Source of the DNA: a virus
Lineage: Duplodnaviria > Caudoviricetes
Length of the DNA stretch: 64,000 nt
Direction: 5' to 3' (one strand)
Virus record (IMG/VR): IMGVR_UViG_3300012983_000033
Location: 1 to 64,000 of that record
The notes below the pieces were generated by a model. It was not told the origin of the DNA. It did not search any database and worked only from the letters and a program-made list of their open reading frames with translations. Both the position numbers and the translations under genes were made by a program. The first letter of the stretch is position 1. Each line of letters begins with the position of its first letter. Below are positions 3,460 to 8,624 of this stretch, one piece after another.

Positions 3460-4404
3460 ATGGGACAAAAGGATAATATCATCAATATGCAAAATCATTT
3501 CGATGAAAAAGCAAAAATGATGGAAGACCGCAACAAACAAGTTATCGGTAATCGTTTTACTGAAATTATGAATATGATTGATTCAACAGGTAGCGAAGAA
3601 GGTATTGCACCTATCGCGGCAATTCTCTCTATGCCTGATAAAGATCTTACAATGTTCTCTGAAATTTTCTTAGGAGAATTAGAGAGAGCAATGAGAAATA
3701 GTAATGAAGCTCTTCTTATGGCACAGGCGCTTAATATGTCTGGCGGCAATATTGATGACCTCAATTCTGCTTTTCAGGAACTTCTTGTTGAAATTGAAAA
3801 ATCAGACGAGCTTTCAGATACTAAAAAGGATTTCTTAAAACGCTTCTTTATGATTATCATTAATGCTATTGCTGAAACAGAAGGCGTTTCAAAGAAAATT
3901 ATTGAAATTCCAATCGAGCTTATGGAGGGCGCAAAAGTCCCAGTTTATGCTCGTCTTGGAGATGCGGGACTTGATATTTATTCAACAGAAGATATTGAAG
4001 TTCTTCCCGGCGAAACAAAACTTGTTCATACAGGTATTAAAGTTGCTATCCCTCGTGGTTACGAACTTCAAGTTAGACCAAAGAGCGGTATTAGTTTAAA
4101 AACAAAACTTCGTGTTGCTAATACACCAGGTACTATTGATAGCGGTTACCGTGATGAAGTTTGTGTAATTATCGAAAATGTTGATCCTCCAATCAAAGAT
4201 ATTACTTATGACTTTGATGACAAAGGTCATCCAGTAATTACCTCAATCCTTCATGGTTCACCTTATACAATTGAAGCAGGTCAGAAAATTGCACAGTTCG
4301 TTCTTAATGAAGTTGTTGTTGCTAACTTCAATGAAGTTACTAATATTTCTGAAGTTGAGGGAGAAAACCGTGGCGGCGGATTTGGTAGCACGGGATTGAA
4401 ATAA
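3460..4404 (+). CDS. dut: Trimeric dUTPase with ~145-aa N-terminal extension
   Basis: DAGLD, RPKSG, GTIDSGYRDE, KIAQ and RGGGFGSTG motifs. Confidence 0.92.
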   Translation: MGQKDNIINMQNHFDEKAKMMEDRNKQVIGNRFTEIMNMIDSTGSEEGIAPIAAILSMPDKDLTMFSEIFLGELERAMRNSNEALLMAQALNMSGGNIDDLNSAFQELLVEIEKSDELSDTKKDFLKRFFMIIINAIAETEGVSKKIIEIPIELMEGAKVPVYARLGDAGLDIYSTEDIEVLPGETKLVHTGIKVAIPRGYELQVRPKSGISLKTKLRVANTPGTIDSGYRDEVCVIIENVDPPIKDITYDFDDKGHPVITSILHGSPYTIEAGQKIAQFVLNEVVVANFNEVTNISEVEGENRGGGFGSTGLK

Positions 4405-5144
4405 TGGCTAAAATTAAAATTGAAGACATTCGTTAGAGTGTTGAAGAACTCGGTTGGAAAGTTATTAGTGGAAAATATGATAACTTAGAGACCGAAATGG
4501 AATTTGAATGTAATGAGGGGCATAGAATATATGCCCCTTGGAAAAAACTTCGCAATAAAATAGAATGTCCTATTTGTAAGGCGAATGTATATAAAAGTAC
4601 AGAAACTAAGGTTGTTCCTAAAAGGAAAGGATAGAAAAGAATCCTCGCTTTAGACCAAGCAACTAAAGTAACTGGCTATGCAATATATGATGGAGAGGAT
4701 CTCGTAAAGTACGGCACATTCTCCACATACAAAGATAATCAAGAAGATAAATTTTCAGAAGTGCGCGGCTGGTTAATAAATATGATAAATGTTTGGCAAC
4801 CAGAGTTCATTGGTTTTGAGGGAATTCAATTACAGGATAATGTTGCTGGTGGTCAAAAAATGGGTGTTACAACATTTGAGGCTCTCGCGCGACTTCAAGG
4901 CGTAATTATGATTACTTGTAAGGAAATGAATATTCCTTTTGAAATTTATCCTACAAATACTTGGCGCCAAGCTTGCGGCGTAAAAGGACGCGCGCGAGCA
5001 GAGAAAAAACGCTCTATGAGAGAACTTGCAAAAAAATGGTTTGATATAACTGTTACTGAAGACGAGGCGGACGCGATAGGTATTGGAAAGCATACTGCGA
5101 GCCAGTTTAGCAAGGCGCATACTATTTTTAATTGGGAAACATAA
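4404..5144 (+). CDS. RuvC-like Holliday junction resolvase with N-terminal Zn ribbon (two in-frame TAG)
   Basis: ATG overlaps the dut stop; read-through of TAG 4434 and 4632 gives CNEGH..CPIC then ILALDQATKVTGYA, FEGI and DEADAIGI. Confidence 0.85.
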
Positions 5145-5147
5145 AAA

Positions 5148-5171
5148 GAGAAGGTAAGTAATCTTACCTTC
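5148..5171. terminator. Hairpin between convergent genes
   Basis: AGAAGGTAAG-TAAT-CTTACCTTCT. Confidence 0.6.
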
Positions 5172-5535
5172 TCACTTTATATATTCCCCATATAAAACGG
5201 TCGCGTGGATCAAAAGTATCATAAATGCATCCATCAATACAGCAAGTTATATGACCACTCATAGTTATTAGGTAAATACCTCTTGGTTGTGAAGCAATAA
5301 AATCACGAATGGAGACATTACAGCCTCGATCGCAATAATATATTTTTTCAAAGTGTTCGTTTAAATAATCATCAATACTGTTTATGTCATCAGGCATTAC
5401 ACAATGATATCGAGCATATTCACATAACTCTTTATAAATTGAATCCCAAGAACGTCCCGTAGCTAACGATATCGATCTTATGGTGCAGTCGTGTACGTGC
5501 AGTTGCTTGGGATTAGCATTATAATATTTAAACAT
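5164..5535 (-). CDS. Putative papain/C39-like cysteine peptidase-fold protein
   Basis: NANP..DCTIRSI, GHITCCIDG and YDTFD suggest a Cys-His-Asp triad. Confidence 0.55.
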   Translation of the reverse strand: MFKYYNANPKQLHVHDCTIRSISLATGRSWDSIYKELCEYARYHCVMPDDINSIDDYLNEHFEKIYYCDRGCNVSIRDFIASQPRGIYLITMSGHITCCIDGCIYDTFDPRDRFIWGIYKVRR

Positions 5536-6086
5536 TAGATATTTTTAATTTTTTGGATATGTTTGCGAATTGTTTCCTTTTCTTCTGGAGTTTCCGCAGT
5601 ATCCATTAAACTTTCAACAAGTGTACAAACCGCATACATGGTTTTTTCAAGTCCTTCCACCATTTGACCTGAATGCGCGCCATCATGATAACGACCTTTA
5701 CCCATATAATATTCTTCAAGGAAGTCTACCATACGGTCGATTTTTTCATAAAAGCGGCTCATATCGGGGCTATAGTGTTGATATCTCCCAGAACCACCAC
5801 GTTCATAGTTTCCATAGCCCGTATCACCTCCATACATGCGAGGACGTTCAAAGGTCATTGGATACATACTACCATAATTATAATCTCCGCGGCCTCCGCG
5901 TTCATAGTATCTCATACTATCGCCTCCTTTCATTTCTTTTTTTGTTTCTTCTACTTCTTTAATATCCTTTAAAATATCCATAAGCTTAGAAGTGGTTTCT
6001 AAATTAGCACTTGTTAAGCCTTTTTCACCAATTTGCTCTAATTCTTTGGTTACTAATTCTTCAAGTTTTTTGAGCTTTTCTTCCAT
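5535..6086 (-). CDS. Hypothetical protein: helical ends with a central Y/G/R-rich low-complexity region
   Basis: GGAGG RBS; stop overlaps the next ATG; repeated YERGG segments. Confidence 0.8.
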   Translation of the reverse strand: MEEKLKKLEELVTKELEQIGEKGLTSANLETTSKLMDILKDIKEVEETKKEMKGGDSMRYYERGGRGDYNYGSMYPMTFERPRMYGGDTGYGNYERGGSGRYQHYSPDMSRFYEKIDRMVDFLEEYYMGKGRYHDGAHSGQMVEGLEKTMYAVCTLVESLMDTAETPEEKETIRKHIQKIKNI

Positions 6087-6099
6087 TTAGATTACCTCC

Positions 6100-6492
6100 T
6101 TAAGCGCCGGCTTCTTCTGTAATAGGCAAAGATGCCGCGTTGTTTACACAACGAGAGCAAGGCAATCTACCCAACAGTTTAAATACGCCGTCTTGAATAT
6201 TTGTGTTGACCATTACCGAATACCGAGTACGCGCATTAATTGAACAAGCCAAAACATTCGTACAATCGCAGTTAAGTAAAGGATACTCAGTTGTACCATC
6301 ACCGATTGTGATGACTACATTAGCTGCAACAGTTGTAGCTGCAGGTATTGTCTAAGCAACAACAATACAATACTTTTCACAATCATTATAATTTCCTTCT
6401 GGGATGTTGATTGTGAGTGTGTCGTCTGCAAAAGTGACTGCTTCTGATATAACCAGTCTTTTACAAAGTCTCTTATAATTAGGACAACTCAT
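6100..6492 (-). CDS. Cys-rich beta-strand protein, 130 aa (TAG at 6352)
   Basis: MSCPNYKRLC...CIVVA(Q)TIPAATT...NCDC...PCSRC; ends at TAA 6100. Confidence 0.8.
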
Positions 6493-6572
6493 AATTTCAC
6501 TCCTTAAAAATTTGGAGGAAGATGCGGGTATATCTTCCTCCAATAATCACGCATTAGCGGAAAGTTTTTTAA

Positions 6573-7364
6573 TTATGCACAGCCACAGCCGCAACCGTTG
6601 TTAAATCCGTTGTAGCCTAAACCAAAAGCTGCTGCATAAGGACTGCAAGTAAGGTAAGCAGGTTTTGCTACAGGCATAAGCTGATTTACGATGTTGCTTG
6701 TCTGAGAGAGCTGAGATAACTGGAATTGCGCAGACTGAAGTTCTGTGCGAAGTTTATCCATCTCTGTTTGAGTGAGATAGTTGATGATTCTGTCTGTGTT
6801 CTTGTCGTTGGCTACGAGGATATCATTTGCGGCCTGAGAAACAGCATATTTGATATTCTCTTGGCCACGGCCAAGATCGCAGCAGCAAGAAGCCATCTGG
6901 TTAGCAAGACTATTGAAGCCTGCTTGGTTAGTAAAGTTTGACTAAAGAATTGACTTATCAACGCCGCAGAAGCCCTGGGCCATTTCAAAGCCTACGTTAG
7001 CAATAGATTGCTGTGTCTGGCAGCAGCAATTCTGAAGAGCAGCCTGAAGAGAAGCGATGTTTGCAGAAGTTGTATAGAAACCATCGCAAATTCCATTCTG
7101 AATTCCTCTGAGACCATTGTCTAACTGATTAAAGTTAAAGGCATCAGTCATGCCTTGCATTGTAGCGGGTGTGCAACAAGCATTAGCGTAATAATTTGCG
7201 CCGTCGCCATTACCACCGAAACCATTACGATTCCAGCCACCTGCAAAAAGTAGGATAAGTAGAACAATCCACCATCCATTGTCTCCGCCCCAACCATTGT
7301 TGTTGTCTGAACCTGTGTTTCTAAGGGCAAGAGCGTCAGCTACAGAAATTCCTTCGTTCATCAT
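6573..7364 (-). CDS. Gly/Asn-rich, single-TM, coiled-coil, Cys-rich protein, 263 aa (TAG at 6942)
   Basis: Two track ORFs fuse in frame: KSIL(Q)SNFTNQAGFNSLANQMASCCC; WWIVLLILLF hydrophobic segment; GCGCGCA C-terminus. Confidence 0.85.
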
Positions 7365-7406
7365 TGTGTTTCCTCCTTTTTGGAAAAATTTTTTATCTCA
7401 AAACGC

Positions 7407-7649
7407 TTACATATTTTGAATTGTAGAAAAGAGATTGTTCATCTCAGTATTAAAATCTCTACCCTATTGTCCAAAATATTGTTTAGCGAATTGTTCAAGA
7501 CCTTGAACATCACCATTCTAACCCATTCGTAAAAGATTCATCATCATTGGGTTATCTGCATAGTTAGTTTGTATAATCTGTTCGGCGACCGCACGAGGGT
7601 TGCCGTTTTTTATTTGTTGTAATAATTGTATTGGATTTATACCTGCCAT
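7407..7649 (-). CDS. Gln/Asn/Met-rich helical protein, 80 aa (two TAG)
   Basis: MAGINPIQLLQQIKNGNP...RMG(Q)NGD...FGQ(Q)GRDF...; absent from the code-11 track. Confidence 0.75.
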
Positions 7650-8059
7650 TCTATCTTACCTCCAAGTTTTTCTTTTATTTTTAAGACAGCATCTTCGATA
7701 CGATTAAGACGCTCATCATATTCTTTAAACATGCCGGCGGGCACCTCTTCAGTAGGAGAGGAAGTAACAGTACCCTCTATTGGGCTTAAACGGTATCCTA
7801 ATAACATCGGCGCACCGTTTTGAAAAGATTTTATATACATCAGATTTTCAGACAAACATAAACCTACCGAAACATTCGCGCCCGCCGGCACATTATTTAT
7901 ATCGGAAGCTGTGTTTAAGCTGAATAAGTTACCTACTGGTTGTAAAAAAATACTTGGTTGTATTTGATTAAATTGCGGCATAGTTGGCGCCGCGGCTTGT
8001 GGCTAAGATTGCTGTGTTTGCTGTGGATTAAAAGGGTAGTTTGGATAATTGTTTGTCAT
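7637..8059 (-). CDS. Hypothetical protein with Pro/Gln-rich N-terminus (one TAG)
   Basis: GGAGG RBS and ATG 8059 in frame with track ORF 7637-7981. Confidence 0.78.
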
Positions 8060-8243
8060 ATGTTTTCCTCCTTGTTTCTTTGTCCTTTCAATCTAAAGTA
8101 GAAAAACCGTATAGAAGCTTTACAGCTTACTATACGGAGACAAAAAGTTTGTCAATCTATGACAAATTATTTTTATAGTATTTTGTGAAAATTGCACAAA
8201 AAGTTTGACCCATTATGTAAGATACATAGTGGGTCTTTGTTAA

Positions 8244-8624
8244 TTATTCAGTTACAAAAGAAATGATGCCTTGAATTTCATCCATACTAAGTTCGAGACT
8301 TTCGATTTCTGAAATATTAATTGGCGCCGCTTCAATTTCAAATTCAAATGCGAGAAGTTCATTAAACTTTTCATTACATTCTACGATTTTATCTGGGATT
8401 ACTTTGAAATTTCCAACATCATCGCGCACGATATTTCCGTTTTCGTCTTTTTCAGCATATTCATTTAAAATTGCTGAAAGTTGCTCTTGATAGAATGAGA
8501 AGTGAGGATCGATTGCTTTTGCAATACAATTGAGGCGATATCCCGTACGAAGTGGGAATTTGCGGTCTTTGATTTTTGAATAGAAACTACGGAAGCTTAA
8601 AGCTTCGCTGAATGATATTTTCAT
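8244..8624 (-). CDS. Conserved phage hypothetical protein (DUF1617-like by inspection)
   Basis: RBS AAGGAG; upstream TTGAAT-17-TATAAT promoter; EYAEKDENG motif. Confidence 0.6.
   Translation of the reverse strand: MKISFSEALSFRSFYSKIKDRKFPLRTGYRLNCIAKAIDPHFSFYQEQLSAILNEYAEKDENGNIVRDDVGNFKVIPDKIVECNEKFNELLAFEFEIEAAPINISEIESLELSMDEIQGIISFVTE

Follow-up and report, generated by a model that had tools for sequence, protein, structure and literature searches.

A co-conserved six-gene cassette of gut phages that may encode a membrane-anchored, Cys-rich stalk-and-knob complex

We have analysed a cassette of six minus-strand genes, called here g1 to g6 from its upstream to its downstream end, in the phage deposited in IMG/VR as record IMGVR_UViG_3300012983_000033. 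The genome is complete, measures 139,671 bp and carries direct terminal repeats; we studied its first 64 kb, hereafter the window, in which the cassette occupies positions 5164-8059. A first-pass annotation made from the sequence alone had proposed that six tightly coupled genes become legible at this place once TAG codons are read through. All six open reading frames (ORFs) were found, on the minus strand and at these positions, and the coupling is indeed tight: g1 and g2 overlap by 13 nt, the stop codon of g5 overlaps the start codon of g6 (TAATG), and a strong GGAGG-type ribosome binding site (RBS) lies before each of g1-g5. The genes and the hairpins that accompany them are the following, from upstream to downstream.

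8207..8235, unstranded: hairpin with a 13-bp stem between the 8244-8624 gene and g1 (terminator-like site scan and sequence)
7637..8059, minus strand: g1, 140 aa, one TAG (Gln19) (ORF, RBS and syntenic homologues in loci L004-L015)
7407..7649, minus strand: g2, 80 aa, two TAG (Gln44, Gln62), Q/N/M-rich and helical, overlapping g1
6573..7364, minus strand: g3, 263 aa, one TAG (Gln141) (match to phrog_16490, E 3e-28)
6512..6543, minus strand: stem-loop with a 12-bp stem in the g3-g4 spacer, directly upstream of the g4 RBS
6100..6492, minus strand: g4, 130 aa, one TAG (invariant Gln47) (alignments of homologues and AlphaFold2 (AF2) model)
5535..6086, minus strand: g5, 183 aa (match to phrog_28802, E 3e-17)
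5164..5535, minus strand: g6, 123 aa, phrog_3754 (alignment and AF2 model)
5148..5173, unstranded: bidirectional intrinsic terminator, found on both strands and common to the convergent RuvC-like gene at 4404-5144

The hairpin at 8207-8235 marks the upstream boundary of the cassette and the terminator at 5148-5173 its downstream boundary, and the six genes are one hairpin-bounded late operon. The stem-loop inside it, at 6512-6543, may be an attenuator or an RNA-processing site. The start of g4 was corrected to the ATG at 6492, which gives a protein of 130 aa and not the TTG-initiated form of 147 aa, because an AAGGAG RBS precedes this codon and the resulting N-terminus, MSC..., matches that of all homologues. 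In the 145-nt spacer upstream of g1 there is also a perfect 7-bp inverted repeat with a 5-bp centre (TTTGTCA TAGAT TGACAAA, window 8148-8166), which overlaps a TTGACA hexamer, itself followed 15 nt further on by TATAGT; this site may serve as operator and promoter of the cassette.

The genes upstream of the cassette encode, in this order, terminase, portal, capsid, tail-tube paralogues, a tape-measure-size protein, Dit and proteins of 3573, 728 and 126 aa, an order by which the region reads as a siphovirus-type morphogenesis operon. The six genes come after the 126-aa gene and close the late region. Late expression here depends on the reading of TAG as Gln, and the recoding is real, because Gln47, the residue that g4 encodes by TAG, is invariant in 14 homologues that come from standard-code phages, and because the giant neighbouring ORFs need read-through: those of 3573 and 3295 aa, both late and on the minus strand, require 23 and 57 TAG read-throughs, respectively. 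The TAG codons of g2 and g3 likewise align with Gln in close homologues.

The first-pass annotation had suggested a gene-neighbourhood survey as a check and had taken a lack of co-conservation as evidence against its proposal. We ran such a survey, seeded with g3, by tblastn of the six proteins against 80 IMG/VR loci, and the genes proved to be co-conserved. All six occur in the same order in 12 large phages (L004-L015), in which g3 identity is 47-73%; g3 and g4, often with g6, recur in distant phages of 25-70 kb; and full g1-g6 or g2-g6 sets are found in contigs of 14-61 kb with no other likeness to this phage. A survey seeded from the other end gave the same picture. g6 has at least 521 relatives in IMG/VR, and g5 lies directly upstream of it in 76 of the 80 best g6-seeded loci; at the 69 loci with 2.6 kb or more of upstream DNA, g3 was present in 64 and g5 in 67. 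Taken as genomic co-occurrence, these counts strongly argue that the six genes are one co-conserved module.

A search of a 90%-clustered database yielded 1,533 matches to g3; at the level of 50% identity the family comprises 3,736 clusters, 2,105 of which have E up to 1e-10. All are 220-370 aa long, and almost all come from phages. A scan of prokaryotes with one genome per species (185,579 species, alignment A5) returned 5 contigs of metagenome-assembled genomes with g3 family members, and the ESM Atlas clusters of g6 and of P0001, the homologue with which g3 was looked up there, are all viral. The g3 family is essentially viral.

The first-pass annotation had likened the cassette to gene sets of gut Firmicutes phages. 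The cassette does occur in cultured siphoviruses of Clostridium perfringens (CPD1, XP41-N3, 17DYC, HMD-PC1 and PMQ04), but it is not confined to such phages, being present also in a Bacteroides uniformis phage (C3_41T2LP) and in many Crassvirales, and so it crosses the divide between Crassvirales, with Bacteroidota hosts, and Clostridia phages. The crAss-like cassettes carry g3 and no detectable g6. In CPD1 the cassette corresponds to genes 036, 037, an HNH insert, 039 and 040. That HNH gene (CPD1_038, L002 5104-5754) lies between g2 and g3, and an I-HmuI-like gene (L090 3895-4515) precedes g3 in C3_41T2LP; so well is the cassette conserved that homing endonucleases can target it. In the crAss-like phage cr52_1 (L001 1136-3667) the cassette comes directly after an Mtd-like tail protein and the reverse transcriptase of a diversity-generating retroelement. 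The cassette is real, strongly conserved and very widespread: it recurs in thousands of phages of the gut, and among gene sets of gut and rumen phages that still lack an explanation it ranks with the more widespread. On its mechanism, what follows is our inference.

As the first-pass annotation had held, no function is assigned to these genes: scans of the six proteins against Pfam, NCBIfam, PHROGs and PADLOC gave only PHROGs of unknown function. No cassette protein matched a PADLOC profile for anti-phage defence at E up to 0.01, and searches of the Protein Data Bank (PDB) by sequence and profile gave nothing significant for g1, g4 and g6. A literature search returned nothing relevant on DUF7841, the PHROG families involved, the crAss labels 'spike' and 'LysB' or Cys-rich phage modules, and the C. 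perfringens phage papers found were genome notes without virion proteomics of the cassette genes. Public labels of cassette proteins ('spike protein/glycoprotein', 'outer capsid protein/viral fibre', 'ubiquitin-like protein') are driven by composition and misleading. The 'spike protein/glycoprotein' and 'LysB-like' labels that g3 carries in crAss-like phages are explained by the features that it shares with spanins and fusion proteins.

The signature protein of the cassette is g3. It opens with an acidic N-tail of 29 aa. A hydrophobic anchor flanked by Trp follows at about residues 31-44, then come helical repeats studded with Cys and rich in Q, N, G, S and T, next a coiled coil, and a P-x-P-AY-x-TC-SPY linker leads into the closing GCGCGC tail; Cys clusters lie at residues 63-64 (CC), 113-115 (CCC) and 160-162 (CCC). 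The earlier description of a G/N-rich head, a hydrophobic segment, a coiled coil with CC and CCC motifs and a GCGCGC tail holds, and the Cys clusters are conserved: one CCC column is invariant in an alignment of 19 diverse homologues, and a CGCG tail is near-universal across 146 distinct g3 genes. The hydrophobic segment at the N-terminus is the only one in the protein. In homologues the N-tail is 31 aa long at the median, its net charge averaging -2.4, and the core behind it is short, strongly hydrophobic and bordered by Trp and Gly. Ahead of this segment come a conserved N-terminal helix and then (F/W)GG; in crAss-like g3 the hydrophobic N-terminus is weaker. In one homologue from a metagenome contig (P0149, locus L172) a fragment of acyl-CoA dehydrogenase stands in frame with g3 exactly at the Trp-rich anchor, and we set it aside as most likely a chimeric contig or read-through.

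The protein at the other end of the cassette, g6, had been called a probable Cys peptidase, and both its alignment and its model bear this out. Asp16-Cys17, His95 and Asp106 are invariant in 14 homologues, and every structural neighbour of the AF2 model (predicted local distance difference test score, pLDDT, of 90) is papain-like. The nearest solved folds, with about 100 residues aligned, are the C39 domains of PCAT1 (Z 6.9) and ComA (Z 6.6), 3b79 (Z 6.0) and LahT150 (Z 6.0). Other papain-like folds are equally near, namely the pseudomurein endoisopeptidase PeiR (Z 6.8), YopQ (Z 6.3) and AvrPphB (Z 6.0), and at Z scores below 8 C39 is not separable from PeiR, AvrPphB or Josephin. Tae4 was the top Foldseek match of the model, and Foldseek against the PDB gave no match at E up to 1e-3. 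Neither g6 nor its 14 homologues matched any Pfam family, PF03412 included, at E up to 1, or any PDB entry by sequence profile. In the ESM Atlas g6 fell in viral clusters without names, where Peptidase_C39 was a weak lead (15% of one cluster, score 0.91). We class g6 as a stand-alone papain-fold Cys-His-Asp peptidase, C39-like in shape and a possible member of the C39 family. With the C39 domains of PCAT1, ComA and LahT150 it shares a size of ~125-150 aa, the papain fold and a similar order and spacing of the triad; it differs from C39/PCAT systems in standing alone, with no ABC transporter and no canonical-leader substrate found. Gly-Gly sites are present in g1, g3 and g5, but they do not have the canonical spacing of C39 leaders.

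The proximity of g6 to C39 domains, which are its nearest folds, together with the ESM Atlas lead and the conserved helix and (F/W)GG ahead of the hydrophobic segment of g3, would fit a bacteriocin-like or secreted membrane-active product, in which g6 would cut a leader from g3 at Gly-Gly and free a Gly/Trp-rich membrane-inserting protein against other cells. Prophage SPbeta encodes a Cys-rich bacteriocin with a C39-bearing transporter. We nevertheless consider such a product very unlikely. No transporter gene was found in the window or in related loci, and neither the cassette nor its surroundings contain an ABC transporter or any export gene; the distance from the helix to GG differs between g3 homologues, unlike that of true double-glycine leaders, and a canonical leader at the g3 N-terminus was dropped as a candidate on this ground. 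At 220-320 aa and with a conserved coiled coil, g3 is also far larger than bacteriocins, and the crAss-like cassettes would have to make their product with no detectable g6.

The first-pass annotation had also placed the cassette where lysis genes often lie. This position does not stand, because the genes that likely serve lysis, as judged from sequence, lie ~100 kb away: an Amidase_2 endolysin of 380 aa with one TAG (genome 108780-109922, outside the window, within genome 107797-110638, locus L084), whose C-terminal half of ~190 aa has no family match, and two single-transmembrane (TM) proteins beside it (genome 108427-108780 and 107797-108402). Searches for Amidase_3 and GH25 in this phage found neither. 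Nor did any of the six cassette proteins match a recognised peptidoglycan hydrolase domain in Pfam or NCBIfam.

A non-canonical lysis aid would be a different matter: g3 could be a spanin-, fusion- or holin-like membrane disruptor and g6 a small cell-wall endopeptidase, both supplementing holin and endolysin. Like i-spanins, g3 has an N-terminal anchor and a Cys-bearing coiled coil; g6 is also near peptidases of peptidoglycan and pseudomurein, as the PeiR and Tae4 matches indicate; the cassette of locus L021 comes after an NlpC/P60-like gene and multi-TM proteins, and that of CPD1 lies a few kb past the amidase and holin genes. The g3 profile, moreover, found its best PDB matches in coronavirus S2 HR1 and influenza HA2 (E 0.02-0.5). 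We rejected g3 as a class I fusion protein, since the best of these matches (E 0.018) covers only Gly-rich and coiled-coil stretches and g3 has no C-terminal TM anchor; as support for a lysis aid, too, the matches fall short of significance and owe their scores to the composition of the coiled coil. Spanins (lambda Rz/Rz1) and class I fusion proteins do resemble g3 in having an N-terminal hydrophobic anchor or a Gly-rich, fusion-peptide-like segment, long helices, a coiled coil and conserved Cys. They part from it in that the cassette offers no lipoprotein partner and no second TM, occurs in phages of monoderm hosts and has separate lysis genes. No lipobox or o-spanin partner was found among the cassette proteins, a spanin would serve no purpose in C. 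perfringens, a monoderm host of phages with the cassette, and this phage already has its complete Amidase_2 and TM-protein set. The coiled coil of an i-spanin is periplasmic; for g3 the charge pattern would favour a cytoplasmic C-terminal domain, a prediction from a weak asymmetry. We view a lysis aid as unlikely.

Between g3 and g5 lies what we call slot 4, occupied in this phage by g4. As predicted, g4 is a Cys-rich all-beta protein, with Cys at residues 3, 10, 38, 42, 75, 77, 83, 112 and 115 and eight strands in the AF2 model (pLDDT 79). Against BFVD the model matched the C-terminal parts of phage fibre proteins (collagen-like, hyaluronidase and T7-type) with E of 1e-4 to 1e-3, and its nearest PDB fold is that of residues 242-340 of the Pa193 tail fibre (Z 4.7, root mean square deviation 4.0 over 94 residues), more than 1 Z above the next. 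Foldseek against the PDB gave no match at E up to 1e-3, and g4 matched neither BclA_C nor any other Pfam family at E up to 1; TNF/C1q/BclA and Ena/DUF3992 folds are not in its PDB fold-match lists, an absence that does not exclude them. What the model shows is a beta-sandwich similar to the tips of phage fibres. Among the BFVD matches is a crAss-like protein carrying DUF7841, a domain that occupies the g5 slot in other cassette variants, and this model-based match hints that slot-4 and g5-slot parts can be fused.

In most g6-seeded loci, slot 4 holds a different protein of ~155 aa. Four such proteins matched Pfam BclA_C (PF18573) with E of 5e-7 (30 bits, profile positions 3-127/128), 9e-6, 0.02 and 0.07, all below the 38-bit gathering score. 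A profile comparison by hhalign found no homology between g4 (alignment A3) and these BclA_C-like proteins (alignment A6), so that one occupant appears to have replaced the other and not to have diverged from it. Among 146 distinct g3 genes, the slot-4 neighbour is of g4 type in 36, BclA_C-like in 60 and another protein in 50. As far as gene order and alignment tell, the slot is conserved and its occupant swapped, as in receptor-binding tips.

The main rival to the reading that we favour draws on this swapping, which is typical of receptor-binding modules. It takes the cassette to encode an accessory virion fibre on the tail or head, with g3 as a trimeric coiled-coil shaft, the slot-4 protein as a swappable receptor- or glycan-binding knob, g1, g2 and g5 as chaperones or adaptors and g6 as a maturation protease. 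The fold of g4 is like the C-terminal parts of annotated phage fibres, its BclA_C-like alternative has the knob fold of collagen-like fibres, and the composition of the g3 repeats (Q, N, G, S, T), together with late, TAG-dependent expression, would suit a fibre; the cassette also comes after tail or fibre genes in this window, in L016, in L032 and in cr52_1. However, the same g3 N-terminus recurs in podo-, sipho- and myovirus backgrounds, which argues against a common docking site on the virion, and a Trp-flanked hydrophobic anchor is unusual in fibres. In the C. perfringens phages and in C3_41T2LP, moreover, the cassette lies among recombination and early genes, and a search of proteins of 462-2000 aa found no fusion of g3 to a larger fibre protein, in itself weak evidence. 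We hold a virion fibre to be a doubtful but serious possibility.

The BclA_C-like occupants also bear on the proposal that the cassette modifies the spore coat or exosporium, its Cys-rich proteins being built into host spores so as to protect or spread the phage. The composition does recall Cys-rich exosporium proteins, a BclA_C-like protein stands in sister cassettes, and some carriers infect C. perfringens, a spore former. A role specific to spores does not fit, because carriers include the Bacteroides uniformis phage and Crassvirales, whose hosts do not sporulate; the family is, in addition, nearly absent from bacterial genomes. No Pfam match to ExsY/CotY/CotZ or ENA families was obtained at E up to 1, these families are not among the PDB fold-match lists of g4 (which does not exclude them), and no collagen repeats were found. 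With fibre tips and the TNF/C1q-like C-terminal knob of BclA the cassette shares a small beta-sandwich, g4, that matches fibre C-terminal parts, and sister slot proteins whose sub-threshold matches span the full BclA_C; it differs from the BclA exosporium nap in having no GXX collagen stalk, in carrying its knob as a separate polypeptide and in including non-sporulating hosts. Already disfavoured by its hosts, the spore reading is the most improbable of those weighed here.

The remaining proteins, g1, g2 and g5, look like low-complexity helpers, and their compositions are those that had been described: a P/Q-rich head in g1, Q, N and M throughout g2, and YERGG in g5. g1 starts with a disordered, prion-like head rich in P, Q, N and Y, continues with a small beta domain and closes with a C-terminal helix and the clade-specific ending GG-x3-W; distant g1-like proteins belong to phrog_21718, to which PHROGs assigns no function. 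g5 has a conserved N-terminal helix, a disordered middle rich in Y, G and R, and a C-terminal helical domain. Of the 85 g3 genes with a strong hydrophobic anchor, 70 have a small M/Q/N-rich ORF like g2 upstream, as do 4 of the 50 without such an anchor (both features at 70 loci, the anchor only at 15, the ORF only at 4 and neither at 46), an association confounded by shared ancestry. In g1, g2, g4, g5 and g6 we found no hydrophobic N-terminus, lipobox, export signal or TM segment.

Several cassettes carry further small proteins. Many variants of the cassette have an extra helical protein of 62-77 aa, which lies between the slot-4 protein and g5 in L106, L107, L111, L118 and L120 and is CPD1_041 (L002 6833-7033) in CPD1; several of these proteins, not all, end in K/R-G-G and a short tail, another possible Gly-Gly site. 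A ferritin/Dps-like helical protein of 175-198 aa follows the cassette in two unrelated phages (L016 7395-7991 and L002 7421-7948), and g5 has a faint match to DUF5856 (E 0.13); the two observations may hint at metal handling.

The reading that we favour, tentatively, is that the cassette encodes a portable anchor-stalk-knob complex that is assembled in the cytoplasm, held together by Cys and trimmed by g6; its purpose is a guess. The core of the module is g3 with the adjacent small beta-sandwich protein, which is of at least two types, g4-like or BclA_C-like, both resembling fibre-tip knobs, and in one large clade this core travels with g5, g6, g1 and g2. The first-pass annotation had proposed a self-assembling, disulfide-crosslinked, membrane-anchored structure matured by the peptidase. 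A self-assembling, Cys-stapled structure survives as a reasonable reading, because the module is co-conserved, g3 has an anchor, a coiled coil and conserved Cys clusters, and its partner is fibre-tip-like or BclA_C-like; the spore and lysis-position parts of the same annotation are not supported, as described above.

According to this proposal, the parts would assemble in the cytoplasm of the infected cell. Assembly on the cytoplasmic side, with the N-terminus of g3 across the membrane, is suggested because the partners have no export signals and the g3 N-tail is short and acidic. The N-terminus of g3 would thus lie outside and its C-terminal domain face the cytoplasm, with the hydrophobic segment anchoring an oligomeric stalk. 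The Cys-rich tail of g3 and the Cys-rich ends of the slot-4 protein would be the likely joint that holds the knob, through bound metal as long as the surroundings are the reducing cytoplasm, or through disulfides once the cell has lysed. Before insertion the g3 anchor might be shielded by g2, which is rich in Met and Gln, and g6 would probably trim one partner after Gly-Gly, with G26-G27 of g3, G54-G55 of g5 and G133-G134 of g1 as candidate sites. Our guess is that the complex works at the envelope or membrane of the host, for instance in exclusion, in the masking of receptors or at a step linked to lysis, rather than docking on a particular virion, and we favour such a target, common to all hosts, over a virion docking site.

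Exosporium and ENA proteins are a precedent for Cys-linked assemblies built in the cytoplasm, and their Cys-rich termini serve as connectors (PMC12357932). Likening these connectors to the Cys-rich ends of the cassette proteins is an analogy of our own. As for the anchor, g3 is comparable, in architecture only, to p16.7 of phage phi29, an early DNA-binding protein with an N-terminal TM segment and a cytoplasmic coiled coil: both have a single N-terminal anchor helix and, as proposed for g3, a coiled coil facing the cytoplasm. p16.7 is unlike g3 in being early and DNA-binding and in having no Cys clusters or knob partners.

Several points weigh against a complex of this kind. No part of it has a characterised homologue in Pfam, NCBIfam, PHROGs, PADLOC or the literature. 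The fold matches, from structure predictions that covered the g4 and g6 monomers, are middling (Z below 8 for g6 and 4.7 for g4) and show fold class, not function. The predicted topology of g3 depends on a weak charge asymmetry in which neither flank is basic. The candidate Gly-Gly sites do not have the fixed-spacing leader of true C39 substrates, and the one in g1 belongs to the clade-specific ending; the association of g2 with the anchor is subject to the confounding already mentioned. Finally, the cassette of many phages has tail-fibre or virion genes as neighbours, a position that would suit a virion part equally well. When lysis cassettes, spanins, C39/PCAT systems, BclA and the exosporium, fibre tips, class I fusion proteins and defence systems were compared with the cassette, none matched it on every defining feature. 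The lysis aid, the bacteriocin-like product and the spore modifier are less likely than the anchor-stalk-knob complex.

A bolder claim, which we put forward with still more reserve, is that the complex represents a new class of portable accessory structure of Crassvirales and Clostridia phages: a membrane-anchored stalk stapled by Cys or metal, with a swappable fibre-tip- or TNF-like knob, assembled in the cytoplasm with prion-like low-complexity helpers, matured by a stand-alone C39-type double-glycine peptidase and acting late on the host envelope. If true, this new accessory structure would mask receptors, exclude superinfecting phages or condition lysis. Solving the role of the cassette would explain a late function common to many abundant human-gut phages as well as a stand-alone C39-like protease, and cultured carriers such as CPD1, XP41-N3 and C3_41T2LP make the question directly testable.

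Two genes that flank the cassette deserve a brief description. The 126-aa gene directly upstream of it (8244-8624) belongs to phrog_1401, with no function assigned in PHROGs, and keeps this place before the cassette in the 11 large relatives that are closest (26-42% identity). The product of the convergent gene at 4404-5144 is a RuvC-like Holliday-junction resolvase; ~70 additional residues at its N-terminus match endonuclease/HNH PHROGs, and the gene holds two TAG codons despite lying on the plus-strand replication side.

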